From: Octopus vulgaris
Lineage: Eukaryota
DNA length: 64,000 bases
Direction: 5' to 3'
Assembly: GCA_951406725.2 (NCBI GenBank)
Contig: OX597818.1
Span: 38,874,001 to 38,938,000 of the forward strand
Shown here: positions 6,672-61,965 of the stretch, in pieces
Layout: the number at the start of each line of letters is the position of its first letter
How positions within the stretch are numbered: the first letter of the stretch is position 1
Program-made: the position numbers and the translations under genes
The notes under the pieces: model-generated
What the model was told of the DNA's origin: nothing
What the model saw: the letters and a program-made list of their open reading frames with translations, nothing else
Databases searched by the model: none

Positions 6672-7103
6672 TTACTCTTTTACTCTTTTACTTGTTTCAG
6701 TCATTTGACTGCGGCCATGCTGGAGCACCGCCTTTAGTCGAGCAAATCGACCCCGGGACTTATTCTTTGTAAGCCCAGTACTTATTCTATCGGTCTCTTT
6801 TGCCGAACCGCTAAGTGACGGGGACATAAACACACGTAAATGCTAGGGGGACAAACACAGACACACAAACACACAAACACACGTAAATGCTAGGGGGACA
6901 AACACAAACACACACATACATATATATATATACATATATCCGACAGGCTTCTTTCAGTTTCCGTCTACCAAATCCACTCACAAGGCATTGGTCGGCCCGG
7001 GGCTATAGCAGAAGACACTTGCCCAAGATGCCACGCAGTGGGACTGAACCCGGAACCATGTGGTTGGTAAACAAGCTACTTACCACACAGCCACTCCTGC
7101 GCC
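6672..7103 (-). mobile_element. tRNA-derived CORE-type SINE (family A)
   Basis: Minus strand GGCGCAGGAGTGGCTGTGTGGTAA (A box), GGTTCAGTCC (B box), TTGGGCAAGTGTCTT core and AGTAAAAG tail repeats. Confidence 0.85.
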
Positions 7104-7133
7104 TATAGATATAATCTATAATTCACTAATGCA

Positions 7134-7352: not shown

Positions 7353-7402
7353 ACCATTTTTGATACACCGGTTATAAAGCAACAGAATTAGTCTAAGAAA
7401 TA

Positions 7403-8369
7403 GGCGGCAAGGTGGCAGAATCGTTAGCACGCCGGGCGAAATGCTTAGCGGTATTTCGTCTGCGTTACGTTGTGAGTTCAAATTCCGCCAAGGTCGACTT
7501 TGCCTTTCATCCTTTCGGGGTCGATAAATTAAGTACCAGTTACGAACTGGGGTTGATGTAATCGACTTAATACCTATGTCTGTCCTTGTTTGTTCCCTCT
7601 GTGTTTAGCCCCTTGTGGCTAATAAAGAAATAGGAAATAGGTATTTCGTCTGTCGTTACGTTCTGAGTTCAAATTCCGCCGAGGTCGACTTTGCCTTTCA
7701 TCCTTTCGGGGTCGATTAAATAAGTACCAGCTACGCACTGGGGTCGATATAATCGACTAGATCCGTTTGTCTGTCTTTCTTTGTCCCTTCTATGTTTAGC
7801 CCCTTGTGGGTAGTAAAGAAATAGGTATTTCGTCTGTCGCTACGTTCTGAGTTCTAATTCCGCCGAGGTCGACTTTGCCTTTCATCCTTTCGGGGTCGAT
7901 TAAATAAGTACCAGCTACGCACTGGGGTCGATATAATCGACTAGATCCGTTTGTCTGTCTTTCTTTGTCCCTTCTATGTTTAGCCCCTTGTGGGTAGTAA
8001 AGAAATAGGTATTTCGTCTGTCGCTACGTTCTGAGTTCAAATTCCGCCGAGGTCGACTTTGCCTTTCATCCTTTCGGGGTCGATTAAATAAGTACCAGTT
8101 ACGCACCGGGATCGATGTAATCGACTTAATCCGTTTGTCCTCTCTGTGTTTGTCCTTGTTTGTCCTTGTGGGTAGTAAAGAAATAGGTATTCTGTCTGCC
8201 GTTGCGTTCTGAGTTCAAATTCCGCCGAGGTCAGCTTTACCTTTCATCCTTTGGAGGTCGATAAATTAAGTACCAGCTACGCACTGCGATCGATATAATC
8301 GACTTAATCCCTTTGTCTGTCCCTGTTTGTCCACTCTATGATTAGCCCCTTGTGGGCAATAAAGATATA
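7403..8369 (+). mobile_element. Tandem array of tRNA-derived SINE family B (one head, 5 units of ~183 bp)
   Basis: Head GGCGGCAAGGTGGCAGAATCGTTAG; each later unit restarts at GGTATTTCGTC after tail ..CCCTTGTGGGTAGTAAAGAAATA; approximate TSD AGAATT(A/T)GTC(T/A)AAGAA. Confidence 0.9.
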
Positions 8370-8725
8370 AGAATTTGTCAAAGAAGAGCGGAATATTTTC
8401 AGGATTTATGTTGGCTGGGAGTTGCGGAAAGTGGTGCAGAATAAATGGTAGGAAAGATTTTCAAAATGTGATACATCATAAGAAATTTTGGTTAGTTTAA
8501 CAGTGATAGTAGAGATAATTATCATGCATGTTGACCGATTATAGCCATGTGGAAATGTGTATAGTAGAGAAAATGATAACCTGAATGAATAGTGGAGCCA
8601 CTGGATATAAAGAAACTGTTTATAGGTATGCGAGAGAGTATACGTGAACAAAGTAAAGTAAAATTGCGAAGCAACTGATTAATAAATAAATTAATATAGA
8701 TAAATAAATAAATAAATTTTAGATT

Positions 8726-8944
8726 ACTCTTTTACTCTTTTACTTGTTTCAGTCACGTGACTGTGGCCATGCTGGAGCACCGCCTTTAGTCGAGCAAATC
8801 GACCCCAGGACTTATTCTTTGTGAGCCTAGTACTTATTCTATCGGTTTCTTTTGCCGAACCGCTAAGTTACAAGGGACGTAAACACACCAGCATCAGTTG
8901 TCAAGCGATGTTGGTGGTGGTGGGGGGACAACCACAGACACACA

Positions 8945-8986
<42 letters not shown>

Positions 8987-9146
8987 ACGGGCTTCTTTCA
9001 GTTTCTGTCTACCAATCCACTCACAAGGCTTTGGTCGGCCCGAGGCTATAGTAGAAAACACTTGCCCAAGGTGCCAAGCAGTGGGACTGAACCCGGAACC
9101 ATATGGTTCGTAAGCAAGCTACTTACCACACAGCCACTCCTACGCC
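8726..9146 (-). mobile_element. CORE-type SINE family A
   Basis: Similar to 6672-7103. Confidence 0.85.
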
Positions 9147-9292
9147 TATAGATTAGTTAATTAAGTGCACAAAAGAATGATTCGCAAGATAAATGGATTA
9201 AGGTTTGAAAATATAAGTAGAAGAATTCGTAGGGATTAAAGATTTAGAGATTTGAACGAAAAGGGCTAGGGAGATGGATAATAGAATGAGTA

Positions 9293-13003: not shown

Positions 13004-13287
13004 TAGTGCGTGTGCTTATTTGGCAAAAAAAAAAAATTATAAAAATAAAAACTGCCCCCCCCCCCCCCCCGAAATATGGCAATGTCTGTTCCTGCACACG
13101 GTTTTACATTAGGGATCAAGCAACATAAATTTCTAAACGATATATTTACTATGAAATGAAATTTTGAAAAGGCGCTTGAAAGCAGTAACTCAACACTAAG
13201 TGTTACATATAGAATTATAGGTTAGGGCAATATAGACAGCCCGCTTAATCTGGATATCTATCAAACATGGTAATATGCACTGCAATA

Positions 13288-14048
13288 AGGCGGCGAGCTG
13301 GCAGAAACATTTGCACGCCGGGCGAAATGCCTAGCGGTATTTCGTCTGCCGCTACGTTCTGAGTTCAAATTCTGCCGAGGTCGACTTTGCCTTTCATCCT
13401 TTCGGGGTCGATAAATTAAGTACCAGCTATGCACTGGGGTCGATGTAATCGACTTAATCCCATAGTCTGTCCTTGTTTGTCCCCTTTGTGTATAGCCCCT
13501 TGTGGGCAGTAAAAAAATTGGTATTTCGTCTGCCGCTACGTTCTGAGTTCAAATTCCGCCGAGGTCGACTTTGCCTTTCATCCTTTCGGGGTCGATAAAT
13601 TAAGTACCAGTTACGCACTGGGGTCGATGTTATCGACTTAATCCCTTAGTTTGTCCTTGTTTGTCCCCTTTGTGTATAGCCCCATGTGGGCAGTAAAAAA
13701 ATTGGTATTTTGTCTGCCGCTACGTTCTGAGTTCAAATTCCGCCGAGGTCGACTTTGCCTTTCATCCTTTCGGGGTCGATTAAATAAGGACCATTTACGC
13801 ACTGGGGTCGATATAATCAACTTAATCCGTTTGTCTGTCCTTGTTTGTCCTCTCTGTGTTTAGCTTCTTGTGGGTATCAAAGAAATAGGTATTTCGTCTG
13901 TCTACGTTCTGAGTTCAAATTCCACCGAGGTCGACTTCGTCTTTCATCCTGTCGGGGTCGATAAATTAAGTACCAGTTGCGTACTGGGGCCAATCTGATC
14001 GACTGACCCCCCCCCCAAATTTATGGCCTTGTGCCTAGAGTAGAAAAG
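13288..14048 (+). mobile_element. SINE family B tandem array (one head, 4 units; last unit has the alternative tail ..GGCCTTGTGCCTAGAGTAGAAAAG)
   Basis: Units restart at GGTATTTCGTC; TSD AATAT(G/C)CAC(T/A)GCAATA at 13272-13287 and 14049-14064. Confidence 0.9.
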
Positions 14049-14248
14049 AATATCCACAGCAATAGTCTATTATGCATAGACCAGTATTGTGTGAGCGTGG
14101 TTTTATGTCGTGTGTATATATGTATAAAAGTGACCGATAGAATTAGTAGGCTTACAAAGGATAAGTCCTGGGGTCAATTTCTTCGACTAAAAGCGGTGTT
14201 CCAGCATGGCCACAATGAAATGAGTGAAACAAGTAAAAAAATGAAAGA

Positions 14249-14808: not shown

Positions 14809-15245
14809 GAAGTGGAACCGCAAAGGATGGAACCAAACAGCGCACACGGGTGTGTATGTTCTACCTGAGAGGTTCCTGCTGGCATGGAAAGGAAGGTGCA
14901 GACTGCCGCTTTGCAAATCGGGGACCCTGCCACAGAGACACGAGGCAGATGGACAAACCATCAATACAAAGAAAAGGGATGGACCACGCACCACGTGCCC
15001 CAAAGCGGAGGTACGCAGATGTTGTGCGCGTCACAAACAGCCAACATGATGTTGTCGAAAGAGCAGCTGCTGAGCAACAATGTTTTTTGTGCATGGCACA
15101 AAAGATTGTACAGCAGCTGACCTGGCTTCATCAAACCCAAGCCCGCAGGTGGGACTACCCACTATATACCAGACCACCACAGCAAACAGACACAGGATGG
15201 ACACCGCCGGCAACAACATACACCTCACCTCGATACTCCTACTGA
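14809..15245 (+). pseudogene. LINE ORF1 C-terminal remnant with degenerate CCCH-type zinc finger
   Basis: [22 protein letters not shown] (C-x7-C-x8-C-x3-N, where H is expected); overlaps the start of ORF2. Confidence 0.55.
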
Positions 15246-17335
15246 ACATCAGAGGACTGCAAACACTCAGTAACAGGACAAAGATCCCGTTCCTGAGAGA
15301 CTTTGTTGCATGCAATCAAGCCATATGCATAGCACTTACAGAAACGCACCTGAAACCGGACATAGCAGATGCGGAGTTACACATACCACAGTATGCTGTA
15401 CTACGGACCGACAGGAAAGAAAGGAGTCATGGAGGTGTTGCTATGTACATCCGTGAGGACCTCACACCCCAGGTCCTCTTGTCATACTCAAACTCGGTGT
15501 GTGACACACTAATTGTACATATTAGGCAACTTGATGTAGTTGTGTGTGCTACATATCGCCCTCCAGATGCCCCAAGCCATGTGGGCAAGTTTGAAGACTG
15601 CCTTATAAAAATAGAAGAAATTCTAACCACATTAGAACAACACATAGGTGTGCTTCTTATGGGAGACTTCAATCTGCCCAATGTCAGATGGCCCGAGGGC
15701 CTTTCTCTCCCAGGAATGACAAGATGTGAACGAGGACAGGCGAGGTCCCTCCTGAACCTCACCAACACCCTGTACATGGAGCAGGTAATACTCCAACCAA
15801 CCAGGGCAGGTAACACACTGGATCTCTGCTTCACAAATGACATGGATCTCATCCATAATGTGAAAGTGACACCGACACTACTCTCGGATCACAACATGAT
15901 AGAGCTGACCATGTACGGGCCAAAAGAGAGCACGGACATGCAGCCTACAAGAAACCCTCAAAATCTTTCCAGCTTGAACTACCATAAGGCAAACTGGAAA
16001 CAAATTGAGAAAGAGATCCTCAAACAAAACTGGCCTAAATGTCTCTCCTCGCCAGACATCGACGTGAAACTTCAACAATTCATGTCTGTAATGCAAGCCA
16101 TATGCTACAAATGTGTCCCAGAGAGAAAGGCCACTGTACACAAGAACAAAATCCCCAGAGAGAGGAAAATTTTAATGAGACGGCGTACGAAATTTTCAAA
16201 TCGCCTAAACAAACAGATTGAAAGCAGTGAAAAGTCCCGCCTAAAAATAAAACTGTTGGAAATCGAAAAATGTCTGCAACTCTCCCATGAAAAAGAAAGA
16301 GCAGACAAAGAAGCCTGGGCTATAGAAAACATAAAATCTAACCCCAGAGCTTTCTACAGGTATGCCAAAGAAACAGCTACAGTGCACTGTAGAATAGGGC
16401 CACTCCTCGAAAAGGATGGCACACTTACAGGAAAACCAATGAGGGTAAGTGAAATACTGAATGAGCAATTCAAGAGTGTTTTCACTCCACCCCTTGGGCA
16501 TCTCCAAATCACCAATCCAACTGACTTTTTTACCACTGCAGATATAAAATCAGAGGCGGCGACGATAGATTACATCGATATAAAGGAAGACGATGTAACG
16601 AAGGCTATAGATGAAATGAAAACAGACTCAGCTACTGGCCCCGATGGATTCCCGGCAATCCTCCTAAAAGCATGTAAGAGAGTCCTAGCAAGACCACTGC
16701 AGTTCCTCTTTCAGAGCTTCCTTGCAGCTGGCAAACTTCCAGGAAAACTGAAGGAAGGTAAAATATGCCCCATTCATAAAGGAGGTAGCAGAGCGGAAGC
16801 CAAGAACTATAGACCTATCTCTCTGACCTCACACATCAGCAAGGTCATGGAACGAATAGTCAGAAGGAAGCTGATCACCTTCCTTGAAGAGAATGACTTG
16901 CTGCCCGACACCCAACATGGTTTCCGACCAGGGAGAAGCTGTTTAACTCAGCTCCTACAACACTATGACTGGGTGCTGAAACGGCTGCTCAACCACTCAA
17001 ATGTGGAAGTGATATATCTCGACTTTGCAAAGGCCTTTGATAAAGTCGATCATGGAATGATATGTCACAAACTGCGTGATCTCAACATAGTTGGAAAACT
17101 GGGAGAATGGCTTCATGACTTTCTGAAGGATAGAAGTCAGGTGGTAGTAGCCAATGGGGCCACCTCCATTAACACACAAATAGTGAGCGGTGTTCCGCAG
17201 GGCACTGTTCTGGGACCACTACTGTTCATAATGGCCCTCTCAGACATGCCCTCAGGGACCACTACTGTTCATAATGGCCCTCTCAGACATGCCCTCAGCC
17301 ACGCAGAGAGCCACGATCACAAGTTATGCAGATGA
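15080..17335 (+). CDS. LINE ORF2, N-terminal part: APE endonuclease + reverse transcriptase
   Basis: LNIRGL, LTETHL, YRPP, GDFN, SDH; GPDG, NYRPISLTS, QHGFRPGRSC, YLDFAKAFDKVDH, GVPQGTVLGPLLF. Confidence 0.93.
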   Translation: MFFVHGTKDCTAADLASSNPSPQVGLPTIYQTTTANRHRMDTAGNNIHLTSILLLNIRGLQTLSNRTKIPFLRDFVACNQAICIALTETHLKPDIADAELHIPQYAVLRTDRKERSHGGVAMYIREDLTPQVLLSYSNSVCDTLIVHIRQLDVVVCATYRPPDAPSHVGKFEDCLIKIEEILTTLEQHIGVLLMGDFNLPNVRWPEGLSLPGMTRCERGQARSLLNLTNTLYMEQVILQPTRAGNTLDLCFTNDMDLIHNVKVTPTLLSDHNMIELTMYGPKESTDMQPTRNPQNLSSLNYHKANWKQIEKEILKQNWPKCLSSPDIDVKLQQFMSVMQAICYKCVPERKATVHKNKIPRERKILMRRRTKFSNRLNKQIESSEKSRLKIKLLEIEKCLQLSHEKERADKEAWAIENIKSNPRAFYRYAKETATVHCRIGPLLEKDGTLTGKPMRVSEILNEQFKSVFTPPLGHLQITNPTDFFTTADIKSEAATIDYIDIKEDDVTKAIDEMKTDSATGPDGFPAILLKACKRVLARPLQFLFQSFLAAGKLPGKLKEGKICPIHKGGSRAEAKNYRPISLTSHISKVMERIVRRKLITFLEENDLLPDTQHGFRPGRSCLTQLLQHYDWVLKRLLNHSNVEVIYLDFAKAFDKVDHGMICHKLRDLNIVGKLGEWLHDFLKDRSQVVVANGATSINTQIVSGVPQGTVLGPLLFIMALSDMPSGTTTVHNGPLRHALSHAESHDHKLCR

Positions 17336-18236
17336 TACAAAAGTTTCACAGGCAATACAGAACCCTGAGGACACTAAACACCTGCAATGTGAGCTGGACG
17401 AAATATACAAGTGGGCTGAAAAGAATAGCATGCAATTCAATGCTGGAAAGTTTCAAGCTTTATACTATCAGCATGCAAAACTGAATGCAATACCCAATGA
17501 ATACACTGGACCCGGAGGGATTGCAATCCCAGAGGCACAATCAGTGCGTGACCTGGGTATTCACATGAGTGATGACGCGACCTTTCATGTACATGTTGCT
17601 AAACTGACAATGAAATGTAGACGGCTGGCTGGATGGATTCTTAGAACCTTTAGAACAAGAGAACAAGAAACCATGATGGTCCTCTGGAAGACACTTGTCC
17701 TAAGCCACTTTGACTATTGCTCTCAGCTATGGTCACCATCCAGTGTCAAGTTGATCACAGAACTTGAGGCGATCCAACGAAGCTACACAAAGAAGATAGC
17801 CTCTATGCAGAATGTAAGCTACTGGGAAAGACTCAAGAGATTAAAATTATATTCCCTGGAGCGTAGGCGGGAAAGATATGCCATAATATACATCTGGAAG
17901 ATCCTGGAGGGAAGTGTCCTGAACTTTGGCATCGAGAGTTACGCAAATGCCAGAACTGGGCGCCACTGCGTGGTGCCTAGGACTCCAAACCTGCCATCAA
18001 GATGTAGGACAAGATACTGTGATAGCCTGGGCTTCCGAGGCCCACAGCTCTTCAATATCCTCCCGAAGAACCTGAGAGACCTGCATGGGGTGGATACAGA
18101 TGTCTTTAAAATGAAGCTGGATCTCTTCCTGTCAGGTGTCCCAGATGAACCAACTTCACGGCAGGAGGGGCAGATGAGGGCAGCTGCATCGAACTCTCTC
18201 ATGCACCAAATAGCAGCTGCTAGAAAGCCTCCATGA
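17274..18236 (+). CDS. LINE ORF2, C-terminal part (after frameshift)
   Basis: YADDTK catalytic motif, RDLGI, DYCSQLWSP and LYSLERRR; the frameshift is caused by a 43-bp duplication. Confidence 0.9.
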   Translation: MALSDMPSATQRATITSYADDTKVSQAIQNPEDTKHLQCELDEIYKWAEKNSMQFNAGKFQALYYQHAKLNAIPNEYTGPGGIAIPEAQSVRDLGIHMSDDATFHVHVAKLTMKCRRLAGWILRTFRTREQETMMVLWKTLVLSHFDYCSQLWSPSSVKLITELEAIQRSYTKKIASMQNVSYWERLKRLKLYSLERRRERYAIIYIWKILEGSVLNFGIESYANARTGRHCVVPRTPNLPSRCRTRYCDSLGFRGPQLFNILPKNLRDLHGVDTDVFKMKLDLFLSGVPDEPTSRQEGQMRAAASNSLMHQIAAARKPP

Positions 18237-20229: not shown

Positions 20230-20505
20230 ATACCACAAGATAGGATCCCTCTCCCAAACAGATGGCTCCCTCACAGGAAACCCCATGAGGATAAGTGAAA
20301 TACTGAACGAACAGTTTGAAAATGTGTTCACTACACCTCTGGGACACAGGTAAGTAAACAAACCAGCAGAATTATTTGCTACTTTACCTGTAAAGAAAGA
20401 GGCAAAATTGAGTACATAAACATTGAAGGTGTAACACTGGCCATAGATGAGGTTGACACAACCTCAGCTGCCGACCCTTATGGATTTCTGGCGGTCCTTC
20501 TCAAA
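20230..20505 (+). mobile_element. Internal fragment of a related CR1-group LINE
   Basis: Similar to ~16390-16665 (IG..DGSLTGNPMRISEILNEQF). Confidence 0.75.
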
Positions 20506-21057: not shown

Positions 21058-22382
21058 CGCTGGAAGATGCAAAAACAGGCGGCCACGTGGTTTTGAGTTT
21101 ATTGCAACCTAAGTAGCAGAAACATCATTATTTCAGCTATAAACACAAACTCGAGTGTCCACCCGCTTTTGCGTCTTCTAAAAGTGTAGTCAAACGAAAT
21201 TACACTCGCCAATACGTCCTCGCGGGTTTAAATTTTATAGGCATAGGTCAATCGTGGTCGTTAATAGCGGCAATAAAAAAAGGGATATATTCTAAATCAG
21301 GACTTGTAATCTTGTCGCTTACTCAGTTATTGATATCGTGTAAAAAAATAGATTTCCCAATTATAGCTTCTGCTTGAATCTAAAAGGTCCATTGTGTTTT
21401 AACAAATGCTGTCAGTACATAAATTCTCGGGAAATTAATGCCACAAATCAAGAAGTTCGATAAGTATCAGTAAATCGTCAAACAAGCTACTTTGTGTTAT
21501 TAGGTCATATACAATTATATTCTGCTCAGGCCGTTTTATTTTATCTCCTTCCCAGGTAAATAAAATATCACAAGACTCGATGTAAACGACAACCACTGAA
21601 GGTGGTGTTCTATCTTGGCTGCTGTCTAATGACTGAAATTAATCAATGAATAAAAGAAAATGCTGTAAGGGCGGCCAACGTTCCTCCATTTTTGACAACA
21701 AATCATTTAAAAATAAATAAGAGAAATGTAATGTTTCAGTTCTAAACTTTCATAAAATGCTGAGATATTTATTTTGTGAATGTATTTCTTTTTATAGAAC
21801 ATACTTTTCAAGTCAAATAATTTCTAAAAATAAATTCAAATTCTCTGGTAGAATCTGGTCTGGCAACTTTTTCGTTCGTATGAATTTCTAAAGGAAAGAT
21901 ATTTAGTTACCTCCACCTCATTCCAATTTGATAACAACAAAAGAAAAGAATAAAAGAAGTCATGAATAAAATCAAAATAAAATGGGAGGAATATCTTAAC
22001 AAAAGTATTTTTTCTCATAAAATAAAATACCTGAATTTATGTTGCGCATATATCGTTTAGGCAGTGACTTTGGAAATTTAAACACAAATATCAGTCTTTT
22101 CAAGTCTCCAACAAACTTGTTCATCTTGCGCCTAAGAAAGTAATATTTGACTTTGGGCAGTGGAGCGAAATAAATAACAGAGTGCGGAGAGTGCAGTTGC
22201 AACTTTTAGTTACATTGCTTTATGACTCGAATTCCAGATTGTCTATGTAATAACTTGGCATTTCTTTTTCTCCAGTTGATTACAAATGCACTAGTTGTTG
22301 TCGTTGTTGATCACCCCAAGTCAGCCTGGATTCAGTTATTTTGGTGGAAATAAAGAAGAAATAGAAGTTGAAAACGCCCTGG

Positions 22383-24228
22383 GTTTCACAGTTTACACTG
22401 ATTTTCAAAAGATGAGATAGAAAGACGTGGGTTATGCCGCAACTGTCTTGCTTCTGAATTTCTTTATTCAGAATTGGGGCGGGGACTAAACAAGGACTGT
22501 CTTACACAGGGCTGGGGTTACAACCGTGATAAATTTGAATAAATCGAGATGATAAATCGAACATTAAACCGAGAAGTGGAAATGCGAAGCAGTGGAAACC
22601 CTCTATAAAACTCCGCAGTAGTTGCTTCGCTGCCGGCATTGCTCCCCCCAGGAGAACAGGTCTCCGCTTGATCCATGTGTCAATTGTGGAAAGAGGAGCA
22701 GACAATCCCGGCGACTTGTCCCCTGGGCACTCAGAAAGCACCTCTATGACTTCCTCAGCTGTGATCGGCCCTTCACAGCGCTCAGCGTCATGTGCCGAGA
22801 GACGCAGGCCACGGGCTAGGAAATCCCGTAGGACATCCCAATGGTCCAGCGTCCCGCTCCTCCCGAACAACGCAGCAAAGTGCTAGTGAAAGGTCTTGCA
22901 CATCTCTTCCTGTCCTTGGATCTTCTGTCCATGTTCGTTTACCACAGTCCTTATCGTAGCATCTATGCCACGTTGGGTTTCTACCGAGTGAGCCCACCCA
23001 GCAACGTTGATACCCTCGCGACCCAGTGCACGTACTTTAGCTCGAACTCTGCATCCTTCGTGTTTGGCATTGAGGTGTTGGTCCAAGACCGATCTCGCCG
23101 CCAAAACTTGGGGTGCAGAGCCTATTCTCAGCGTCTCTTCTAACGCCTTAACTAGATCCCTTTCTACTCTAGTCTATTCTAGACTTAACTGCTTGCTAAA
23201 TCTAATAGACTCAAGTATAATGGCTCTTTTGAGGGCACACCACCACCGGTTATTTAACACGGTGCCGGTTAGTGCCCTCATTACTAACATCTTAATCTGG
23301 CTACGATAAGTTTCGTAATCCAAAAGGGACTTGTTCAACTTCCAATAGCCAGATCCCTGTCTATGGACTTTATCTATATGCATCCTGCACGTCACTAATT
23401 TGTGATCCGTGTAGACTACACAGGTGAACTGTGAACAGCTAAAACTAGACTTATCTCTAGCGTTAATTATTATCCTGTCTATATAAGACCTGACTGATTC
23501 ATCGGTATTAGTTCACATTAGAACGCTCGGATTATCAAGTCTGTATCGATCTGCCAGCCTAGACCGCTTCAGCAGATCGATGAGGTGTGAGTTACATTTC
23601 CTATCGTTCGAGCCTACGCTGTCCTGGCGTCCATCCAAAATAGCGTTAAAGTCTCCTAGCAAAACTAGTGTTTTGACGTCACCAGAAAGGTCTCAAGGCG
23701 TTGATAGAACTCATTCCATTTGTCTGTCGTGCCAGGCGCGTAAATCTCAACCAACCTGAAGGCCTTACCTATGAATGTTAGATCCAGAACTATCGACTCG
23801 CCTCTTGGGTCCACGAAGATCGTACGTGTCTGCAGGGCCAAGTTTTTCCGGAGCAAAACTACAACGCCTCCATTCTCCCTATCCAACTAGGAGACATGAT
23901 TTTCTCATAGCCATTCAGGAAAGTTGAGAAAGCCTGCAGCTTGTCCAACTTGGTCTCTGTAGCAACCGTAACATCAATTCTGTGTGTCCTGAGGTCATCG
24001 AGGAAACAAGCCTGCTTCTGCTTCGAGCCCAGGCCACGTACATTCAAGAGCTGTCTTGCTTCTGACTAGTATTTGAAGATTGTCCTATTTTTATATACTA
24101 TTTTATGCCACGTACTCCCTATAAAGAATAGGACAAACTTCAAAGCACTTGTCAGAAGCAAGACAATTGCAGTATAACCCACGTCTTTCTATCCCAACTT
24201 TTGAAAATGAGTGTAATCTGTGAAACCA
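22383..24228. mobile_element. Fold-back/MITE element interrupted by a Tx1-like insertion
   Basis: 22383-22457 is the reverse complement of ~24152-24227; inner arms at ~24066-24092 and ~24121-24151. Confidence 0.75.
22458..24050 (-). mobile_element. Tx1/L1-clade LINE derivative: endonuclease + linker joined to the 3' end, RT deleted
   Basis: NVRGL, ATETKL, IYAP, GYWKLNKSLL and KSPG motifs; tail AATAAAGAAAT; 15-bp TSD CTGTCTTGCTTCTGA at 22443-22457 and 24051-24065. Confidence 0.88.
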
Positions 24229-24277
24229 GTTAAATCTTTAAATATAATTTTAAAATTTTAACTATTTTCATCTTCTA

Positions 24278-24347
<70 letters not shown>

Positions 24348-24350
24348 GTT

Positions 24351-24541
24351 TTTACTCTTTTACTTGTTTCAGTCATTTGACTATGGCCACGCTGGAGCAC
24401 CGCCTTTAGTCCAGCAAATCGTCCCCAGGACTTATTCTTTGCAAGCCCAGTACTTATTCTATCGGTCTCTTTTGCCGATGCGGTAAGTTACGGGGACGTA
24501 AACACACCAGCATCGGTTGTCAAGCGATGTTGGGGGAACAA

Positions 24542-24606
<65 letters not shown>

Positions 24607-24689
24607 TACGACGGGCTTCTTTCAGTTTCCGTCTACCAAATCCATTCACAAGGCTTTGGTCGGCCCGAGGCTATAGTAGAAGACACTTA
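24351..24689 (-). mobile_element. CORE-type SINE family A, head missing
   Basis: Family A body and tail; breaks at GAAGACACTT where another SINE begins. Confidence 0.8.
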
Positions 24690-24690
24690 T

Positions 24691-25016
24691 GGAGGTGCAA
24701 TGGCCCAGTGGTTAGGGCAGCGGACTCGCGGTCGCAGGATCGCTGTTTCGATTCCCAGACCGGGCGTTGTGAGTGTTGAGCGAAAACACCTAAAACGCTC
24801 CAGAAAGCTCCTGCAGGGAATGGTGGCGAACCCTGCTGTATTCTTTCACCACAACTTTCTCTCACTCTTTCTTCTTGTTTCTCTTGTACCTGTATTTCAA
24901 AGGGCCAGCTTGTCACACTGTATCACACTGAATCTCCCCGAGAACTACGTTAAGGGTACACGTGTTCGTGGAGTGCTCGGCTTCTTGCACGCTAACTTCA
25001 CGAACAGGCTGTTCAA
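24691..25016 (+). mobile_element. tRNA-derived SINE with family C head and family D-like body
   Basis: A box TGGCCCAGTGG and B box GTTTCGATTCC; 5' half matches 27466-27754(-), 3' half matches 39536-39856(-). Confidence 0.75.
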
Positions 25017-25136
25017 CCCTCATCGTTGTGTATTTTTATGTTTTTTGATTTATTATTAGTGTTGCTTAATATGTTTTGCTAAAATTGCAGTTTCTTTTCA
25101 GAGAACATCAGAAAAAGGTAATTAAAATTCATTAAA

Positions 25137-25952
25137 ATGAGAGATCTATCGAACTTCCAAAGTGGTCAAATTGCTGGTGCTCGTATGACAGACGCTAGCG
25201 TAACAAAAACAGCCGAAATATTTGGTGTATCAAGAAGTACAGTCTCGAAAGTAATGACAGCCTCTTCATCGAAACAAAACTCCAGAAGAAAACCAAAACT
25301 TTCAGATAGTGACCGTCGGACTCTTACGCGAATTGTTAGAAATGATCACAAAAGTACAACTCCCAAAATTACTTCAGAGCTTAATGACCACCTCGAGAAC
25401 CCAGTTTCCACAAAATTTGTTCGCCGGGAGCTGCACAAAGCTGGATTTCACGGGGGTGGGGCTGCAATCAGAAAACCACTACTTTCAAAAACAAACGTTG
25501 CAAAGCGTTTAAAGTGGAGTAAAAACCTACAGAATTGGTCCCTAGAGCAGTGGAAGAATGTCATTTTCTCGGACGAGTTATCCTTTACCTTATTTCTAGC
25601 CACCGGCCGAGTATACGTGTGGAGACAGCCAAAAGAAGCATTTGACCCAGACTGCCTTCTTCCAACTGTTAAACATGGAGGAGGATCTGTGATGATCTGG
25701 GGGTCTATATCTTGGAAATCCGCCGGCCCAATTGTTTCCCGTCATAGCAGAATTATTGAACATTTATTGTGCATTTTAGGAAAACAAGTAATGAGTCAAT
25801 ATCCTCCACCATCATCACTACATGAACTGGAGACTGTTTTAGCTGAAGAATGGGTAAAAATTCCTTTGGAAACAATTCAAACTTCGTACGAGTCCATACC
25901 TCATAGAATTCAAGCTATAATTACTGCCAAAGGCGGTCCTACCCCATATTAA
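25137..25952 (+). pseudogene. Tc1-family transposase, internally deleted; right TIR ends near 26004
   Basis: HTH region, RKPLLS, W..VIFSDE, PTVKHGGGSVMIWG and AKGGPTPY; the middle catalytic D/E segment is missing. Confidence 0.9.
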
Positions 25953-29181: not shown

Positions 29182-29581
29182 AACAATGTCTGTATTTGAC
29201 TGGACACAAAATGGACAAATTCATTGAGAAAATGTAGTGTCCTGCGTATATCGTTTCAATGTCATTAGTGCCTTATATAAAACAAAACGTTGTAAGCGGT
29301 AACTTAAAAGAGCAAACATGTCACAATAGCCTCAATCGTTTAGTGATAAAACTGCCCACAGAAAGAGTATAGAATGATTTTCGCGCCTTGGCTATTAAAC
29401 AGCTTAAATAATAATTTTAATATAATTACAATGCCAAAATTTTGTAGGACGGGTTAGTCGATGAAATTGCCCTTAGTACTTTATTTTATCGATCCCGCAA
29501 GAAAGAAAAGCAAAGCTCACCTCGGCGATGTTTTGAATTTAGAACGCAAAGAGCTGTAATAAATACTGTAAGGTGTTTTGT

Positions 29582-29910
29582 AGAAGAATATAGATGAGTT
29601 TGTGTTGAGGTGTGAAAGGGAGAATTGGGAGGTGAAAGATATAAGAATGAGCGATGAATTCGTGGAAAAAATGGAGAAGGGTTTTGGAGTAAGAATAGAT
29701 ATGGATGGTCTTCGTATTGGGAATGAACATTCAGGTGACAGTGGAAACAACAGGACAGGTAAGTGGTGCTAGCGGATGGGGCCGTTGGCACCGCTTTCAT
29801 ATATCATTTTCAAAATTCATTATACTCATATCTATGTAATTGTGATGCTCTATGTCCCCAATGTTTGTAACGTCCCCTCTATGTAGCCCCTAGTGGGTAA
29901 TAAAGAATCA
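29582..29910 (+). mobile_element. 5'-truncated ORF1-only (HAL1-like) retroelement inside an old family B SINE
   Basis: Homologous to ~32085-32400(-) (CERENWEVKDIRMSDEFVE); tail GCCCCTAGTGGGTAATAAAG; 17-bp TSD ACTGTAAGGTGTTTTGT. Confidence 0.8.
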
Positions 29911-30846
29911 ACTGTAAGGTGTTTTGTTTTATATTTTAAAGATTCTACCAATCCACAGATTTCAGCAATTTAAATAATGCGATATGACTAAAGCAGGTAA
30001 TAGAAACATAGTTGTAAACTGGCATGGCAGCTGTTGATTTTGACCGACAAAGCATGTTGTCAGTATTTGTTTAAAAAAAAAAAAAGGTTAATTATCCAGA
30101 GATGCTATTTGCATGACAATCAAAACTGAAGTAAGGATAAAGACATTCAATGTAGTGCATAAAAAAATCTAATTAGCAATGGTAATGCGGTGAGGAGAAC
30201 ATTAACAAAATGGCTAATAATATTTTAATCGCTTTCGCAAATACCGAAGACAACTCTGAACATGTTTCTGTCTTATTAAATTAATCGATCTCTTACATGG
30301 AATCAAGGTTGTATATTTGTGGGGGGTAAAAACAACTAAGATAGAGTACATCGTGATGATCTTTAATATGGGCTCAAGGTAAGACATTGGTGAGAGTTGT
30401 AAAGTCAAGTAATATTGATCTAAATCATATTAGTCTATAACATGGGCACAAGGCCACATATTTAGCGTGGGTGTGTGGGTAAAGCTAACTAAAATAGACC
30501 CACATTATATAACTAGCTCGTAGAACATTCGACGTAAACGGACAGAAAGGCAAAGACAAACCTAACTCCATTGGGATTCTATCTCGGAAGAAAGACTGAC
30601 AAAACTAAATACTGTTGGCAATTAGTCGGATACTTGTCTGTCTCAGACATTTGCTATTTCCTCCATTCTTTTCTACTCTAGGCAAACGGTTACTAAAACT
30701 TATGGCCACCTACATTTTTGGGAGGTGGAAACTGACATACGTAATAAAAAAAAAGTGAAAGAAATGAAATATCGCTATATTAAACTGGAATTACCTTTTC
30801 TTTGTGATAGATATAACAACTTACCATGACGTAAGTTCACCTGGTG

Positions 30847-30953
30847 ATTCTTTATTACCCACTAGGGGCGACACAGAGGGGGACACCAAGAGACATGGGG
30901 ACATAGAACATTATAATTAAAATTTATGAAAAATGAATTGTTAAGTGAAAGAA
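30847..30953 (-). mobile_element. 3'-tail-only copy of the HAL1-like element
   Basis: Nearly identical to 32081-32180; 18-bp TSD ACGTAAGTTCACCTGG(T/A)G. Confidence 0.88.
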
Positions 30954-32080
30954 ACGTAAGTTCACCTGGAGATTTACTGAATGCATGTAGCATTGTTAAA
31001 CGCCCAGGAATGCAAAGAAGTGTACAGAAAGTGCCTTCCCACGCACACAAAATTTCTTCTACAACAAAACATGCATACGCATACTTAACATAATGATGTT
31101 TTCTAAAGATATGTCAAACGAAGTAAAAAATAAAATGAATAACTTGTTCAGTATAATACTAGTGTTCTATTCTTTATCTGGTGTTTCACTATGACGGAAA
31201 ATTTTTATCGATTTGGAAAAATGTCTATTGTTACCAGATAAGTTCGACTACATTCATAACTTTTCTATTAACAATTTTGACCAAGTTTTGACGTCAAATT
31301 ATTTAAGTGAGCTCTAGCATCACTCCATGTATTAATTGCTATTTAGGAAAAAAATGACGAAATCAAAACAAAACTAAGGCAAGACCAACAATATTTAATT
31401 TAATGGATATTTGTAGCTTAAAGTATAAAGTAACTCGGTCTGATTAAATGGCATTCTATTATCAGGTTATCGAATAAATTCCGTCCAAATTTTGAATAAA
31501 AAACAAGTGATCAAATGTTATATTTAATTGAAATTTAATCATCAATGTACTTTCCCTAATTATCTATGACTTCTTTCCATCTATCTACAATATTTTTAAT
31601 CCCATCAATGTAAAACTCTTTTGGTTTCAAAGCGAAGAAATCTGAAATGTCAGTTTCAACCCCCTCCTGGCTTGCGAAAGTTATCTCCCCCAAATGATTC
31701 TGTAAACTACGAAACAAATGATAGTCTGAAGGAGCAAGGTCGGGAGAATAAGGTGGATGAGGAATTTTTTCTCAACCAAGCTCTTCGATCTTCTGTGATG
31801 TGATCTTTGCAGTGTGGGGTCGCGCATTGACCTGATGAAACGTCACTTCTTTTCGATTCACTAAAGCGGGTCTTTTTTTATCTTCAAAGCTTGGTTCAAA
31901 CGCTCTAATTGCTGACAGTAGACTTGAGCATTGATTGTTGCATTAGGTGGTAACAATTCAAAGTGAATTACTCCTTTACAATCCCACCAGATAGAGAGAA
32001 AAACCTTTTTACCATGAAGTTCCCATCTCGGTTGTGGTTGAATGCCATAACCAATAATGTGATGCTCTGCAATATATGTG

Positions 32081-33020
32081 ATTCTTTATTACCCACTAGG
32101 GGCGACACAGAGGGGGACACCAAGAGACATGGGGACATAGAACATTATAATTAAAATTTATGAAAATGAATTGTTAAACGAAAAAATGATAAAATGAAAG
32201 CGATACCAACGGCCCCGTCCGTCAGCATCACTTACCTGTCCTTTGTTTTTCATAGTCACTTGAATGTTCTTTGCCAATACGAATAAATTCCATATCCATT
32301 CTTACTCCGAAATACTCATCCATATTTTCCACGAATTCATCGCTCATTCTTATATCTTTCACCTCCCAATTCTCCCTTTCACACCTCACCATAAACTCAC
32401 CTATGTTCTTCTTTTCAATCACAGCATACCTAGTCTCACCAACATCATACCATTTATACTCTTCCATTAGACTTTTAACTTCTTTCTGTTCAGTCATAGT
32501 ACAAATGTACGGCCTGATATCGAATTCAATCTCTTGTGTGTGTGTAGTATTTTTTTTTCTTTTGTTTTCTTGTTGGGGGGGAGCGGGTGGGTTCACTGTC
32601 TGCATGGATAGGGTGGGACTCAGAGGGCGTGGGTGGTTTTGGGGTGGATTGGAGTTCCATATTATTTTCTTTTCCACGTATTCTTCTCTTCCTCTTATTT
32701 CCAGCTTCCTTCCATTTCTGTGTATTCTCTTCCTCTTCTACTGTCTCCTTCTCCTCTGGTTTCTGCTTCTCTCTCTGTGGTTCGGAATCCATTTCTTTCC
32801 CTGGGGGAGGGCAGAAGGCTCTTATGTGACCCCTCAGGCCACACTTGTAACAACGTGGAGCCCTGCCCTCCACCCACACTCTCATGATCACGTCTCCCAA
32901 TCTGATGCTTTCCGCCAGGTCCACCAGTACCTCGTTCTCCGCCTGTACGTTCAGCTCCACTGTTACGCCTCTCCAGCCCTCGGACTTAACCGAGGCATGG
33001 AGAATATCCACTTCGTCCTC
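32081..33020 (-). mobile_element. 5'-truncated ORF1-only (HAL1-like) Tx1-derived retroelement
   Basis: Zinc knuckle VEGRAPRCYKCGLRGHIRAFCP; ORF1 stop followed after ~145 nt by the tail and AATAAA; 17-bp TSD GCTCT(G/A)CAATATATGTG at 32064-32080 and 33021-33037. Confidence 0.85.
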
Positions 33021-33595
33021 GCTCTACAATATATGTGTGTATATATTTCGCTTAATTCATTTTTGCTTAAATTATGCAAATTACCTAGACCATAACTGTT
33101 TTCTACTGTTTGTATAAGTGTAAGTCCTGTATTTACTGCAGATAAGATTGGACAATCGTCGAGCTGCCGAAGGCTGGTTACAACTGTCCTCTTATCTCCA
33201 GACAATAAACCTGTCTTTTCCCTTAATGGCATATCAGTTTTGAAGAAACCTTGAATTTTGAGATTATCTTCCCTTCTCAAGTGGAGGCGGTAATAATTAA
33301 CATTCGATAATTATGATGCATCATCTAGAGGCGGAGATGGTTTTAATAAATCAGAAAATTTCGTGGTACTTGACATACCGGTATTTTTATTCATTTATTT
33401 GTTTCAAACAGTTGAGTGTGGTCATGTTTTGCACCGCATTGAAGGGTTTTATACGAACAAATCGATCCCAGGACTTATTTTTAAAGCCTAATACTTGTTC
33501 TATCAGTCTCTTTTGATGAACCGCTAAGCTACCGGGACTTAAACATACAAAAACCGGTTGTCAAGCGGTGATGGGAGAACAAAGACACACACACA

Positions 33596-33643
<48 letters not shown>

Positions 33644-33668
33644 TCATAATTAAAGTTATATGTACATA

Positions 33669-34068
33669 GGCGCAGGAGTGGATGTGTAGTAAGTAACTTG
33701 CTTACCAACCACATGGTTCCAGGTTCAGTCCCACTGCATGACACTTTGAGCAAGTGTCTTCTACTATAGCCTCGGACCAACCAAGACCTTGTGAGTGGAT
33801 TTGGTAGACGGAAACTGAAAGAAGCCCGTCGAATATATGTATATATATGTATGTGTGTGCGTGTATATATGTTTGTGTGTCTGTGTTTGTTCCCCCAACA
33901 TCGCTTGACAACCGATGCTGGTGCCTTTACGTCCCCGTAACTTAGCGGTTCGGCAAAAGAGACCGATAGAATAAGTACTAGGCATACAAAGAATAATTTT
34001 GTTCGACTAAAGGCGGTGCTCCAGCATGGCCGCTGTCAAATGACTGAAACAAGTAAAAGAATAAAAGA
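33669..34068 (+). mobile_element. CORE-type SINE family A (an inverted partial copy lies at ~33390-33595)
   Basis: Complete head, core and tail. Confidence 0.85.
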
Positions 34069-34172
34069 ACATATATATATATATATATACTAGGAACTAT
34101 AGTTGTTTGTAGTGGTGATGCTGTTGATAGGATGGCGGTGATGGCCGCAGTCAAATGACAAAGAATAAAAGA

Positions 34173-35874: not shown

Positions 35875-36254
35875 GATAAATAGATTATCCGAAATGTATA
35901 GTTTTAAAATCCATCACGGCTGATCTTACCAATCGGTTTTGCGTAAAGATATCAATGGAGTGCTGGGTAACAAATCGATTACATAACTTTTCATTGGTTA
36001 TTGATTTTCCCTCTGATTAGTTTGGGGATGAAAATGTCAACATCAGCCAAAGTAGTAATTAAATTCCTTCTATCTGTACAATGAGACACACAGCTTTAGA
36101 CACACACACGCGCCCGCCTCTACACTTAGATGACCAACACATAGCCCAATGGTCTATGGTTCTTTTCTTATCCCTTAAACATCTTAATGACCTTACAAAC
36201 ATTTTATTCTTCATCCCAATACTTTCACCAGGTTATATATATATCAGTATATAT

Positions 36255-36486
36255 ATTTCTTTACTACCCACAAGGGGCTAAACACAGAGGGGACAAACAA
36301 GGACAGACAAAGCGATTAAGTCGATTCCATCGATCCCAGGGCGTAACTGGTACTTATTTTATCGACCCCGAAAGGATGAAAGGCAAAGTCGACCTCAGCG
36401 GAAATTGAACTCAGAACGTAACGGCAGACGAAATACGGCTACGCATTTCGCCCGGCGTGCTACCGTTTCTGCCAGCTCGCCGCCTT
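36255..36486 (-). mobile_element. SINE family B monomer
   Basis: Full head and tail; TSD TATATATCAGTATATATA. Confidence 0.9.
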
Positions 36487-36684: not shown

Positions 36685-36918
36685 AAAGGCAGCGAGCTGG
36701 CAGAAACATTAGCACGCCGAGCGAAATGCGTAGCCGTATTTCGTCTGCCGTTACGTTCTGAATTCAAATTCCGCCGAGGTCGACTTTGCTTTTCATCCTT
36801 TCGGGGTCGATTAAATAAGTACCAGTTACGCACTGGGGTCGATATAATCGACTTAATCCGTTTGTCTGTCCTTGTTTGTCCTCTCTGTGTTTAGCCCCTT
36901 GTGGGTAGTAAAGAAATA
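36685..36918 (+). mobile_element. SINE family B monomer
   Basis: Full head and tail; 16-bp TSD TATATG(A/T)CTGCGTGAA. Confidence 0.9.
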
Positions 36919-37769: not shown

Positions 37770-38703
37770 GATTTTAGGAAATATATTGTGCTTGGGAAGA
37801 CCCGGCAAGTCAAATGAGACCATAACCTCGTGGCCTATGCCAGGAGCGTAACCAGCCCACTTATGCGTACCTTTTCCTTCTTTGGACACTAAACTCTGCT
37901 TGTGAAGACCTGTTGAGGCAAGTGAAATCAAAATCAAATTCGTTGACTGGCATCTGTGCTAGCGGGGTGCAAAGAGCACCATACCAGTGTGATCGTTGAC
38001 AGAGTGGCTAACCGGCTTCCGTGCCAGTGGCACATAAGTGGCACCATTCGAGTGTGATCGTTACCAGCGTCGCCTTACTGGCACTTGTGCCCATGCTATT
38101 AGGGTGCTAAGAGCACCATCCGAGCGTGATCGTTGCCAGAGCGCCTAACTGGCTTCCATGCAGGTGGCACGTAAAAGGCACCATTCGAGCGTGATCGTTA
38201 CCAGCGTCGCCTTACTGGCACCTGCGCCGGTGGCATGTGTAAAAAGATTCGAGCGAGGTCGTTGCCAGTACCTATTTGTTTACTGCCCACAAGGGGCTAA
38301 ACACAGAGAGGACAAACAAGAACAGACAAACGGATTAAGTCGATTATATCGACCCCAGCGCAAAACTTATTTAATCGACCCCAAAAGGATGAAAGGCAAA
38401 GTCGACCTCGGCGGAATTTGAACTCAGAATGCAGCGGCGAGCGAAATACCACAAAGCATTTCGCTCGGCGTGCTAACGATTCTGCCAGCTCCCCACCCCG
38501 TGCCGGCGGCACGTAAAAAGCACCCACTACACTCTTGGAATGGTTGGTGTTAGGAAGGGCATCCAGCTGTAGAAACTCTGCCAGATCAAGATTGGAGCCT
38601 GGTGCAGCCTTCTAGTTCGCCAGCTCTCAGTCAAAATCGTCTAACCCATGCTAGCATGGAAAGCGAACGTTAAACGATGATGATGATGATGATAATGATG
38701 ATG
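37770..38703 (+). mobile_element. RTE-type LINE 3' region with internal tandem repeats and (GAT)n tail, interrupted by a family B SINE (~38273-38497, -)
   Basis: GGAAGGGCATCCAGCTGTAGAAAC..CCCATGCTAGCATGG..AAACGATGATGAT; repeated CGAGCGTGATCGTT units. Confidence 0.65.
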
Positions 38704-38896
38704 GAGTATCCACAGATTTCTCAGCAGTTTTGCATATATGCTTTCTTTTTCACTAATCATTAATATTTTGTTCACTCCTGTTGGGCAACTGATTTTAACT
38801 ACTGTGGATATTTTCTTTTCTCTGTCGCCTTGTCTCTTATGATTGCATCTTACAGAAGTTTTGATGGATTGTTCCGCTAATATTATGTATGGTTAA

Positions 38897-39110
38897 GGTG
38901 GCGATCTGGCAGAATCGTTTACACGTCAGACGAAATGGTTGGCGGCATTTCGTCCGTCTTCACGTTTTGAGGTCGAATTCCGGAGACCAACTTTGCTTCA
39001 CATTCTTGCGGGGTCGATAAAATAACTACCAAATGAACACTGGGGTCGATGTAATCGACTTACCACTTACTCGCGGAAATTGTTAGCTTTGTGCCAAAAT
39101 TTGAAACCAA
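38897..39110 (+). mobile_element. Older diverged family B-related SINE
   Basis: GGTGGCGATCTGGCAGAATCG head and GGGGTCGATAAAA body. Confidence 0.7.
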
Positions 39111-47346: not shown

Positions 47347-47920
47347 TTTTTCTACTCTAGGAACAAGGCCCGAAATTTTTGGGGAAGGGGGCCAGTCGAT
47401 TACATCGACCCAGTACGCAACTGGTACTTAATCTATCGTTCCCGAAAGGATGACAAGCAAAGACGACCTCTGCGGAATTTGAACTCAGAACATAAAGAGA
47501 TGAAATACATATTTCTTTACTACCCACAAGGGGCTAAACACAGAGGAGACGAAAAGGGACAGACAAACAGAATAAGTCGATTATATCGACCTCGGTGCGT
47601 AACTGGTACTTAATTTATCGACCCCGAAAGGATGAAACGCAAAGACGACCTCGGCGGAATTCGAACTCAAAACGTAGCGGCAGACGAAATACCTATTTCT
47701 TTACTTCCCACAAGGGGCTAAACACAGAGAGGACAAATAAGGACAGACAAACGGAATAAGTCGATTACATCGACCTCAGTGCGTAACTGGTACTTAATTT
47801 ATCGACCCCGAAAGGATGAAAGGTAAAGTCGACCTCGGCGGAATTTGAACTCAGAACGTAGCGGCAGGCGAAATACCGCTAAGCATTTCACCCGGCAACT
47901 TTGTGCCAACTCGCCGCCTT
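47347..47920 (-). mobile_element. SINE family B tandem array (one head, 3 units)
   Basis: Same junction; 16-bp TSD AGT(A/G)TAAAATAGTATT. Confidence 0.9.
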
Positions 47921-48404: not shown

Positions 48405-48953
48405 ATGGCAGAAATGTTAACACGCCGTGCGAAATGCCTAGCGGTATTTCGTCTGTGTTACGTTGTGAGTTCGAATTCCGCCGAGGTCGACTTTGCCTTT
48501 CATCCTTTCGGGGTCGATAAATCAAGTACCAGTTACGCACTGGGGTCGATGTAATCGACTTAATACCTATGTCTGTCCTTAGCCCCTTGTGGGTAATAAA
48601 GAAATAGGTATTTCGTCTACCGCTACCGTTCTGAGTTCAAATTTTGCCGAGGTCGACTTTGCCTTTCATCCTTTCGGGGTCGATTAAATAAGCACCAGTT
48701 ACGCACTGGGGTCGATATAATCGACTTAATCCGTTTGTCTGCCCTTGTTTGTCTCCTCTGTGTTTAGCCCCTTGTGGATTGTAAAGAAATAGGTATTTCG
48801 TCTGCGGTTACGTTCTGAGTTCAAATTCCGCCGAGGTCGACTTTGTCTTTCATTCTTTCGGGGTCGATAAATTAAGTACCAGTTGCGTACTAGGGTCGAT
48901 CTAATCGACTGCCCCCTCTCTCCTCCAAAATGTCGGGCCTTGTAGAAAAGAAT
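48405..48953 (+). mobile_element. SINE family B tandem array (3 units)
   Basis: Units restart at GGTATTTCGTC; the last unit has the alternative tail. Confidence 0.88.
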
Positions 48954-61924: not shown

Positions 61925-61965
61925 GCGTGCTAACGATTCTGCCAGCTGGCCGCCTTAATGTAATA

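Follow-up and report, generated by a model that had tools for sequence, protein, structure and literature searches.

How can a SINE come to lie in tandem arrays that carry a single 5′ head but several bodies, with each further body starting at about the same point of the head? We addressed this question in a 64-kb window (the whole stretch of DNA analysed, to which all DNA-level comparisons are confined) of AT-rich animal DNA dense in microsatellites, SINEs and decayed LINEs. Its repeats resemble what we take to be octopus repeats, the head and body of the SINE presumably corresponding to octopus SINEs and the Meta domain, and tRNA-derived SINEs were reportedly described from octopus by Ohshima and Okada in 1994. 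The answer that we favour, and judge rather probable from this one window, is that new copies inserted at head position 48 of resident copies, where homology conceals the insertion, and that some local duplication was added.

One-headed SINE arrays with a fixed internal junction

The family, SINE-A, has the order tRNA-like head, body and tail ending in GAAATA, with a monomer of ~232 nt, and is represented by four young monomers and six arrays, that is, by 24 units at 10 loci (Table 1). An A-box-like sequence, TGGCAGAA(T/A)CG, lies at head positions 11-21 (position 1 being the first G of GGCGG) and a B-box-like sequence, GAGTTCAAATT, ~25 nt past the internal junction, both recognized by eye against the consensus of such boxes. 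The last ~40 nt of the SINE align with six LINE-type tails, best with those of a gag-only family. With the two boxes, the tail of a partner LINE and a short non-coding body with target-site duplications (TSDs), SINE-A would be classed as a tRNA-derived SINE, a class whose families also number at least 100 dispersed copies and are transcribed by Pol III. Arrays of tRNA genes were rejected as an identity of these loci, ARAGORN having returned no match in the window.

A self-BLAST search with the head and first unit as query placed the start of the downstream array units at query position 47-49, nearly always 48, and a second head was found in none of the six arrays. The internal junctions, 15 in number, follow a SINE tail in 14 cases and the tail of a gag-only element in one; the sequence after the tail is GGTAT at 13 of them and GGTAC and TGTAT at one each, and the sole change in length is found at 7640, where 7 nt of the tail end are repeated. 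The tandem period is 184, with TRF scores of 538-1327 for the five arrays that TRF reports. A chance origin of one-headed arrays with a fixed junction is excluded. Four distal units carry a B tail and a fifth a related B′ tail, the distal unit of array 1 being a diverged A type; all four B-tail bodies of the window lie within arrays, and no B-tail monomer was found in the 64 kb. A first-pass annotation of this DNA had already described at most one head per array, later units starting near head position 47 after a Tx1-type tail and a different distal tail in five arrays, and each of these descriptions stands. The separate array that it had placed at 52606 proved to belong, as distal unit, to the array headed at 55108, a single outer TSD bracketing both.

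Table 1. SINE-A arrays and monomers and LINE-type insertions in the window.
Feature	Position	Strand	Composition and context	Target-site duplication
Array 1	7401-8369	+	head 7403-7449; A-tail units 7450, 7640, 7824, 8008 (units 2 and 3 a local duplicate); diverged A-type host unit 8186	7384-7399 / 8370-8385
Array 2	13287-14048	+	head; A units 13336, 13520, 13704 (units 1 and 2 a local duplicate); B unit 13888	core 13272-13286 / 14049-14063
Array 3	47347-47920	-	head; A units 47877, 47693; B unit 47509	16 bp, 1 mismatch
Array 4	48406-48951	+	head truncated at position 11; A units 48443, 48607; B unit 48792	none found in TSD search
Array 5	52606-55110	-	head 55108-55062; A units 55061, 54877; left junction copy 54693-54678; gag-only element; right junction copy continuing as B unit, 52771-52606	55124-55110 / 52605-52591 (15 bp, 2 mismatches), bracketing 55110-52606
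Array 6	56372-61956	-	head positions 1-30 at 61956-61925; LINE; head resumes at 56760; A unit 56727; B′ unit 56542	
SINE-A monomer	36254-36486	-	junction site in head reads TAGCCGTA	perfect, 16-18 bp
SINE-A monomer	36686-36918	+	junction site in head reads TAGCCGTA	16 bp, 1 mismatch
SINE-A monomer	38273-38497	-	within another repeat; tail followed by GGTAC	none found in TSD search
SINE-A monomer	54402-54634	-	nested in 5′ part of gag-only element of array 5	perfect, 17-18 bp
L1/Tx1-type LINE	56761-61924	-	full-length, decayed, 5.2 kb; in array 6 head at position 15	61940-61925 / 56760-56745 (perfect, 16 bp)
Gag-only element	52772-54677	-	decayed, non-autonomous LINE derivative with ORF1(gag) only; at head position 48	~16 bp
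Control insertion	22456-24046	-	rearranged ORF2 fragment of same LINE group, own tail; outside SINEs	15 bp
Control insertion	32079-33015	-	5′-truncated gag-only element, same tail type; outside SINEs	17 bp
Control insertion	30845-30953	-	short tail fragment of gag-only family	16 bp
Control insertion	29582-29910	+	LINE-type 3′ fragment; antisense in very old SINE relative near position 48-50	17 bp

Some features adjoin these loci. The head of array 6 abuts a 155-copy (ATATG)n satellite at 61966-62743, which has probably overrun the outer TSD. Array 5 is closely followed downstream by an open frame of 299 aa (51384-52283, minus strand) that matches NHL repeats and beta-propellers and is probably a host exon or gene fragment. 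The host repeat of the monomer at 38273 (37957-38270) contains internal tandem units of 65/137 bp, and the GGTAC after the tail of that monomer resembles the position-48 site.

A LINE relative inserted at the junction site

LINEs of the Tx1 clade encode a zinc knuckle in ORF1 and an APE endonuclease, a reverse transcriptase and a C-terminal zinc motif in ORF2. In the LINE that interrupts the head of array 6, separate open stretches match zf-CCHC (E = 0.001) and Exo_endo_phos (E = 0.0015), neither of which reaches the curated cut-off, and ORF2 stretches match RVT_1 (E = 2e-13) and zf-RVT (E = 1.9e-6); a CCHC knuckle in ORF1 with endonuclease, reverse transcriptase and zf-RVT in ORF2 would agree with the domain set of Tx1, which is the label that we assume for this partner. 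Its best relative among solved structures is human L1 ORF2p (E 3e-6), barely ahead of R2, and homologue searches returned 3 and 1 proteins, all unnamed.

The gag-only element of array 5 measures 1.9 kb, a length whose 5′ end is not independently fixed. Pieces of its ORF1 are 48% and 40% identical to the ORF1 of the LINE (E 5e-16 and 1e-22), and its 3′ tail can be aligned with those of the SINE and of the LINE-type elements. It is because of this ORF1 identity and the same type of tail that we regard it as a relative of the LINE; the earlier description of an unrelated element was in this respect mistaken, whereas the statement that it uses the same junction holds. The copies of the junction on its two sides match at 13 of 16 positions, the left boundary being inferred and readable as 12 to 21 nt. 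This ~16-bp duplication is read as a retrotransposition footprint, and it would place a real nick at position 48. Template jumping by the reverse transcriptase in a single event was rejected because it seems less simple than a TSD: the enzyme would need to jump back into positions 48-63 to make the left copy beside the gag-only element.

TSD scores of 8-18 were obtained for 13 of the 16 elements tested, and 4 of 300 random pairs scored at least 8. Each of the five LINE-type insertions other than the gag-only element at 52772 has a TSD of 15-17 bp, as have three of the four SINE monomers with 16-18 bp. As to the surroundings of the control insertions, a pair of ~76-bp inverted repeats, 91% identical, brackets the ORF2 fragment (22382-24227), which landed in one arm of an apparent MITE or DNA transposon end. 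Tc1/mariner transposase remnants lie at 25122-25952 (plus strand; HTH_Tnp_Tc3_2, E = 5e-15) and, by eye, at ~31500-32060, and the gag-only element at 32079 is inserted beside or into the latter.

Insertion and local duplication within the arrays

Two rows were excluded from the distance tests, namely the old monomer at 38907 and the 24-nt junction copy on the left (54693). Distances among the 19 A units average 11.4% within arrays (n = 16) and 10.9% between loci (n = 155). Two of the nine adjacent A-A pairs are near-identical, namely units 2 and 3 of array 1 (1.1%, support 98/89) and units 1 and 2 of array 2 (3.8%, support 100/97). Moderate clustering is seen in two more (units 1 and 2 of array 3, 88/89; unit 4 of array 1 with units 2 and 3, 86/85), and the remaining five, 8.2-20.2% apart, show no local clustering. 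Local duplication therefore accounts for two clear and two probable cases among the 14 inner units, leaving an independent source for 10-12 of them. Greater likeness within an array than between loci, which the first-pass annotation had named as the mark of local duplication, is thus a property of some neighbours and is absent from five of the nine pairs. The second unit of array 3 also looks chimeric, having 3′ rare alleles in common with unit 1 and one 5′ allele with unit 3.

A purely DNA-level origin, in which one ancestral junction was multiplied by tandem duplication or ectopic gene conversion, would explain the two near-identical pairs, the two further local clusters and chimeric middle units of this kind. 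It could not, however, place an A tail ahead of a B body, nor would it yield five unrelated adjacent pairs or a gag-only element with its own tail and TSD in the same place; as the sole mechanism it is contradicted, and we hold it to be very improbable.

Insertion into resident copies must also be weighed against the retrotransposition of whole multimers, by which multimeric masters (complex SINEs of the form head-A-A-B) would have been copied through the distal tail. The restriction of B-tail bodies to arrays would be expected of such masters, as would outer TSDs that bracket whole arrays, and the first units of arrays 1 and 4 are sisters at the same position (97/91). This is the lone cross-locus sister pair, and the units downstream of it are unrelated. 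Yet no two of the six arrays match unit for unit, a match across loci being what had been named beforehand as the sign of a multimeric master; the penultimate A units are 11.9% apart, above background; the distal units are of three different types and, with the outer TSDs, look older than the inner units; and the origin of the multimers would still have to be explained. We consider this reading quite improbable. Between the two sisters the body differs at 7 of 164 positions and the head at 5 of 37 (p = 0.048; this and the other p-values are uncorrected and come from tests picked after inspection of the data), a discordance that is expected if heads stay with their hosts.

Were arrays built by insertion, the distal unit should be the oldest, as had been predicted. 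It is indeed the more diverged: the nearest neighbour at another locus is 9.1% away for distal units (n = 6) and 5.4% for inner units (n = 14, p = 0.001), and locus-private changes number 4.8 against 1.9 (p = 0.015), a contrast that is confounded and inflated by the sparser sampling of relatives for B and B′ units in the window. Array 5 reverses the trend, with one private change in its B unit against two and four in the others. In the outer TSDs of arrays 7 of 62 bp are mismatched, and in those of monomers 1 of 52 (p = 0.07). Among the inner units, an age gradient is weak and inconsistent, first and penultimate A bodies standing at 7.8% and 8.2%.

In array 6, the two units share rare alleles only within the first ~40 nt. 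They differ there at 2 of 40 columns, against at least 4 in comparison with every other unit, and at 10 of the next 80 columns, and their tails are different. Because the downstream unit has this 5′ part in common with the upstream unit, the stretch starting at the junction appears to be derived from the host and not from the donor, although later gene conversion could yield the same pattern. Over the first 16 columns of the 12 non-duplicate adjacent pairs no excess likeness was found (14.1%, against 15.1% between loci). At 48792, moreover, a B unit begins as A-type units do, and this calls for recombination or an RNA-templated junction.

Use of position 48

The six LINE-type insertions are found once at position 48, once at position 15, once antisense in an old SINE relative and three times outside SINEs; two of the six, a small sample, thus struck SINE heads in sense orientation, each at a different position. 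The antisense fragment is hosted by the old relative (29476-29582 / 29910-29927) within a few bases of position 48, which may be chance or may mean that both strands of the head region are accessible. Five SINE insertions by the same machinery also lie away from position 48. With five of the six LINE-type insertions elsewhere, the endonuclease does not seem to be strictly site-specific, bearing in mind that the six elements are diverged subfamilies whose target preferences might differ. The chance that at least one of six such insertions strikes one of the ~10 position-48 sites is 0.0005 for uniform targets, 0.013 for NNTAT targets and 0.10 for RC|NRWAY targets, the last motif having been drawn from the same window data as are used in the estimate. 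Position 48 is occupied by 11 of 16 SINE units and by 1 of 6 LINE-type elements (p = 0.056, resting on our own count of independent events), and this more frequent use by SINEs points to a role for homology.

The model offered in the first-pass annotation was a strictly sequence-specific Tx1 endonuclease that recognizes TAGC|GGTA, followed by annealing of a full-length cDNA to the upstream head in the manner of R2. TAG(C/T)GGTA is present in all six array heads and in none of the four young monomers, a split that chance would give once in 210 but that is confounded with subfamily, and the window contains no more than 10 instances of the motif, six of them in array heads. Furthermore, many Tx1 elements are target-specific according to PMC4494074, which takes more than 20% of copies in one sequence type as the criterion. 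Weighing against such an enzyme are the LINE-type insertions at other sequences, with the same proviso about subfamilies, and weighing against its second step are the discordance of heads and first-unit bodies and the geometry of the TSDs, in which 15-17 bp downstream of the nick are duplicated, so that the homology comes to lie downstream as well. We find the model improbable. Its claim of targeting rather than slippage survives insofar as the arrays grew mostly by insertion, given the TSD of the gag-only element and the five unclustered pairs; strict targeting, and annealing to the upstream head as it was stated, find no support, though annealing to the head is conceivable.

A hairpin was considered as the cause of targeting, since position 48 adjoins the hairpin loop of the SINE head. 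The RNA fold of the unit showed no extra stability over shuffled sequences (z = -0.36), and neither a local hairpin around position 48, in several folds, nor a 5-bp hairpin of tail and junction beat shuffles (z -0.5 to -1.64); the hairpin was set aside and stays a lead only. Retrozymes are tandem retroelements with a self-cleaving ribozyme in each unit. Rfam returned no match at the gathering score across the whole window, and with no special fold of the unit a ribozyme or circular-RNA origin was likewise rejected, although an undescribed ribozyme is conceivable. Tethering through Pol III factors is possible, position 48 lying between the A and B boxes. The excess of SINEs at position 48 is probably due to a loose nicking preference (RC|NRWAY) together with homology, and not to a strictly site-specific endonuclease.

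A role of RNA at the junction itself can also be envisaged. Pol III read-through RNA, in which a tail is followed by position 48 onward, might pair with a nicked or broken downstream SINE body and be copied across, and one founding dimer could then spread the junction without any endonuclease preference. The SINE consensus holds no T4 terminator, so that Pol III would be expected to read through the arrays, and the arrays with heads at 7403 and 55108 contain no sense-strand run of four T. The bias of SINE over LINE-type elements towards position 48 (11/16 against 1/6) and the A-type 5′ end of the B unit at 48792 would follow from such templating, and co-transcription with the target is described as strengthening targeted integration (PMC4494074). 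The ~16-bp duplication around the gag-only element, by which position 48 would have been truly nicked, and the host-derived rather than donor-derived 5′ part in array 6 tell against it, and as the origin of the arrays we think it unlikely; it is compatible with insertion at position 48 as a booster.

A model for the growth of the arrays

We propose that SINE-A, by way of its A tail, is mobilized by an L1/Tx1-type LINE, whose enzymes duplicate ~16 bp of the target. The bottom strand of a resident SINE would be nicked at head position 48, where the gag-only element has left its footprint, and target-primed reverse transcription would begin exactly where the A tail ends. To judge by the TSDs of 15-17 bp, the top strand would be cut ~16 nt downstream, leaving a 3′ overhang that corresponds to SINE positions 48-63; a downstream second-strand cut that creates the TSD is the model of PMC2666801. 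With the second cut downstream of the first nick, this overhang, and not the head, would be the natural homologous partner. The SINE cDNA carries its complement and would anneal to it in register, the branch at times migrating further inwards, and the product would be host head, new body and tail, and host body, the new head being discarded. For seamless R2 junctions, annealing over no more than 11 bp is reported to be enough (PMC11331408). The TSD of a SINE-into-SINE insertion would be invisible because it is itself SINE sequence, whereas a LINE-type RNA without that homology would leave it visible; no SINE-into-SINE event in the window displays a TSD directly. Once direct repeats are present, unequal exchange or slippage copies and shuffles neighbouring units.

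We speculate further, and with considerable doubt, that SINE-A could be a retroelement that targets itself and is driven by positive feedback: the LINE partner would prefer the promoter region of the SINE for landing, homology would hide the insertions, and read-through RNA from the arrays would pair with the nicked target and raise targeting, head variants without the site (TAGCCG, TTGCGG) acting as escape alleles. If so, Pol III heads already in place would be captured by new bodies and no further loci would be disrupted, and retrotransposition would drive a route from SINE to satellite seed, with SINE counts and ages misread in such genomes. As 14 of the 19 A-tail units lie inside older copies, repeat landscapes would miscount and misdate them.

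More generally, dispersed repeats could seed tandem repeats by repeated insertion at one spot in older copies, and short arrays of this kind may preserve a record of the initial duplication from which SINE-derived satellites arise. The window provides a built-in control, in that a non-homologous gag relative at the same site reveals the duplication that SINE units would hide. Should the pattern hold genome-wide, it would show, in nature, an APE-type retrotransposon whose 5′ joining is guided by homology, and this joining is poorly understood.

Relation to known systems

Tandem Alu insertions consist of full-length copies, each with a head, and R2 uses a restriction-like endonuclease. R2 junctions of the 'anneal' type resemble our model in that the 3′ end of the cDNA pairs with a homologous target to give a seamless joint for which 11 bp suffices, but R2 pairs upstream of its nick and targets rDNA, whereas pairing would here be expected downstream, given the 15-17-bp TSDs (PMC11331408). 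SINEU-3 of crocodilians is mobilized by Tx1-type machinery and prefers a site in another repeat, where sequential insertion gives tandems around a 16-bp TSD (PMC4494074). SINEU-3 and Tx1-Mar would resemble the window arrays in machinery, repeat-internal site and tandem growth by sequential insertion. They differ in that SINEU-3 targets Mariner-N4_AMi and leaves the TSD visible between complete copies, while the SINE of the window would target itself, with the TSD hidden and the heads unrepeated; and SINEU has a poly(A) tail (PMC4494074), whereas the window elements end precisely and without poly(A).

The squamate satellites sSat1-3 comprise tens to hundreds of homogenized units, for which the main explanation offered is unequal recombination, invoked and not tested in the available part of PMC10702118, where insertion into the same locus is mentioned only in passing. 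Subtelomeric clustering is a further mark of the sSats. As in the sSats, the unit is shorter than the SINE (184 nt against ~232 nt, with one head), the terminal unit reaches the SINE end and short loci are heterogeneous. Unlike the sSats, described as having at least four homogenized middle monomers, the window arrays have 2-5 units of different subfamilies and a retrotransposition footprint at the junction, with at most three middle units that are no more alike within arrays than between loci (11.4% against 10.9%). In the Dip/B1 multimers of jerboas (cited in PMC10702118), SINEs also accumulate at earlier copies, but these are full-length and each has a head. By analogy, the window arrays would work like a SINEU-3 that targets itself and would look like early sSats.

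The supplement of PMC13282606 lists 80 L1-Tx1 families for O. vulgaris, and such arrays are undescribed in the accessible text of PMC13282606, PMC4758252, PMC5804259, PMC3747384 and PMC3531059. The ingredients are known (tandem insertion of SINEU-3, anneal junctions of R2 and SINE-derived satellites of reptiles), and their combination is unreported in the literature searched, which covered subscription journals and Repbase Reports thinly.

Other repeats of the window

An older monomer at 38895-39100 (plus strand) has the same head and body as SINE-A with a third type of tail, and its uninterrupted position-48 site reads TGGCGGCA. Two very old SINE relatives lie head to tail at 42160-42470, and the second of these appears to jump from just past position 48 to an old-type tail, without a body. 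A lone B-type tail end with no SINE body, possibly from a LINE partner of subfamily B, is found at 30665-30690 (minus strand). Another LINE, with endonuclease and reverse transcriptase domains in two overlapping frames of 753 and 334 aa, occupies 15074-18236 (plus strand) and is in part similar to 20240-20505. A second abundant SINE family, which has an internal (AT)n/(AC)n microsatellite (6672-7123, 8682-9153, 24247-24883, 33384-34089 and others), forms no arrays of the SINE-A kind, and copies of it flank array 1 on both sides.
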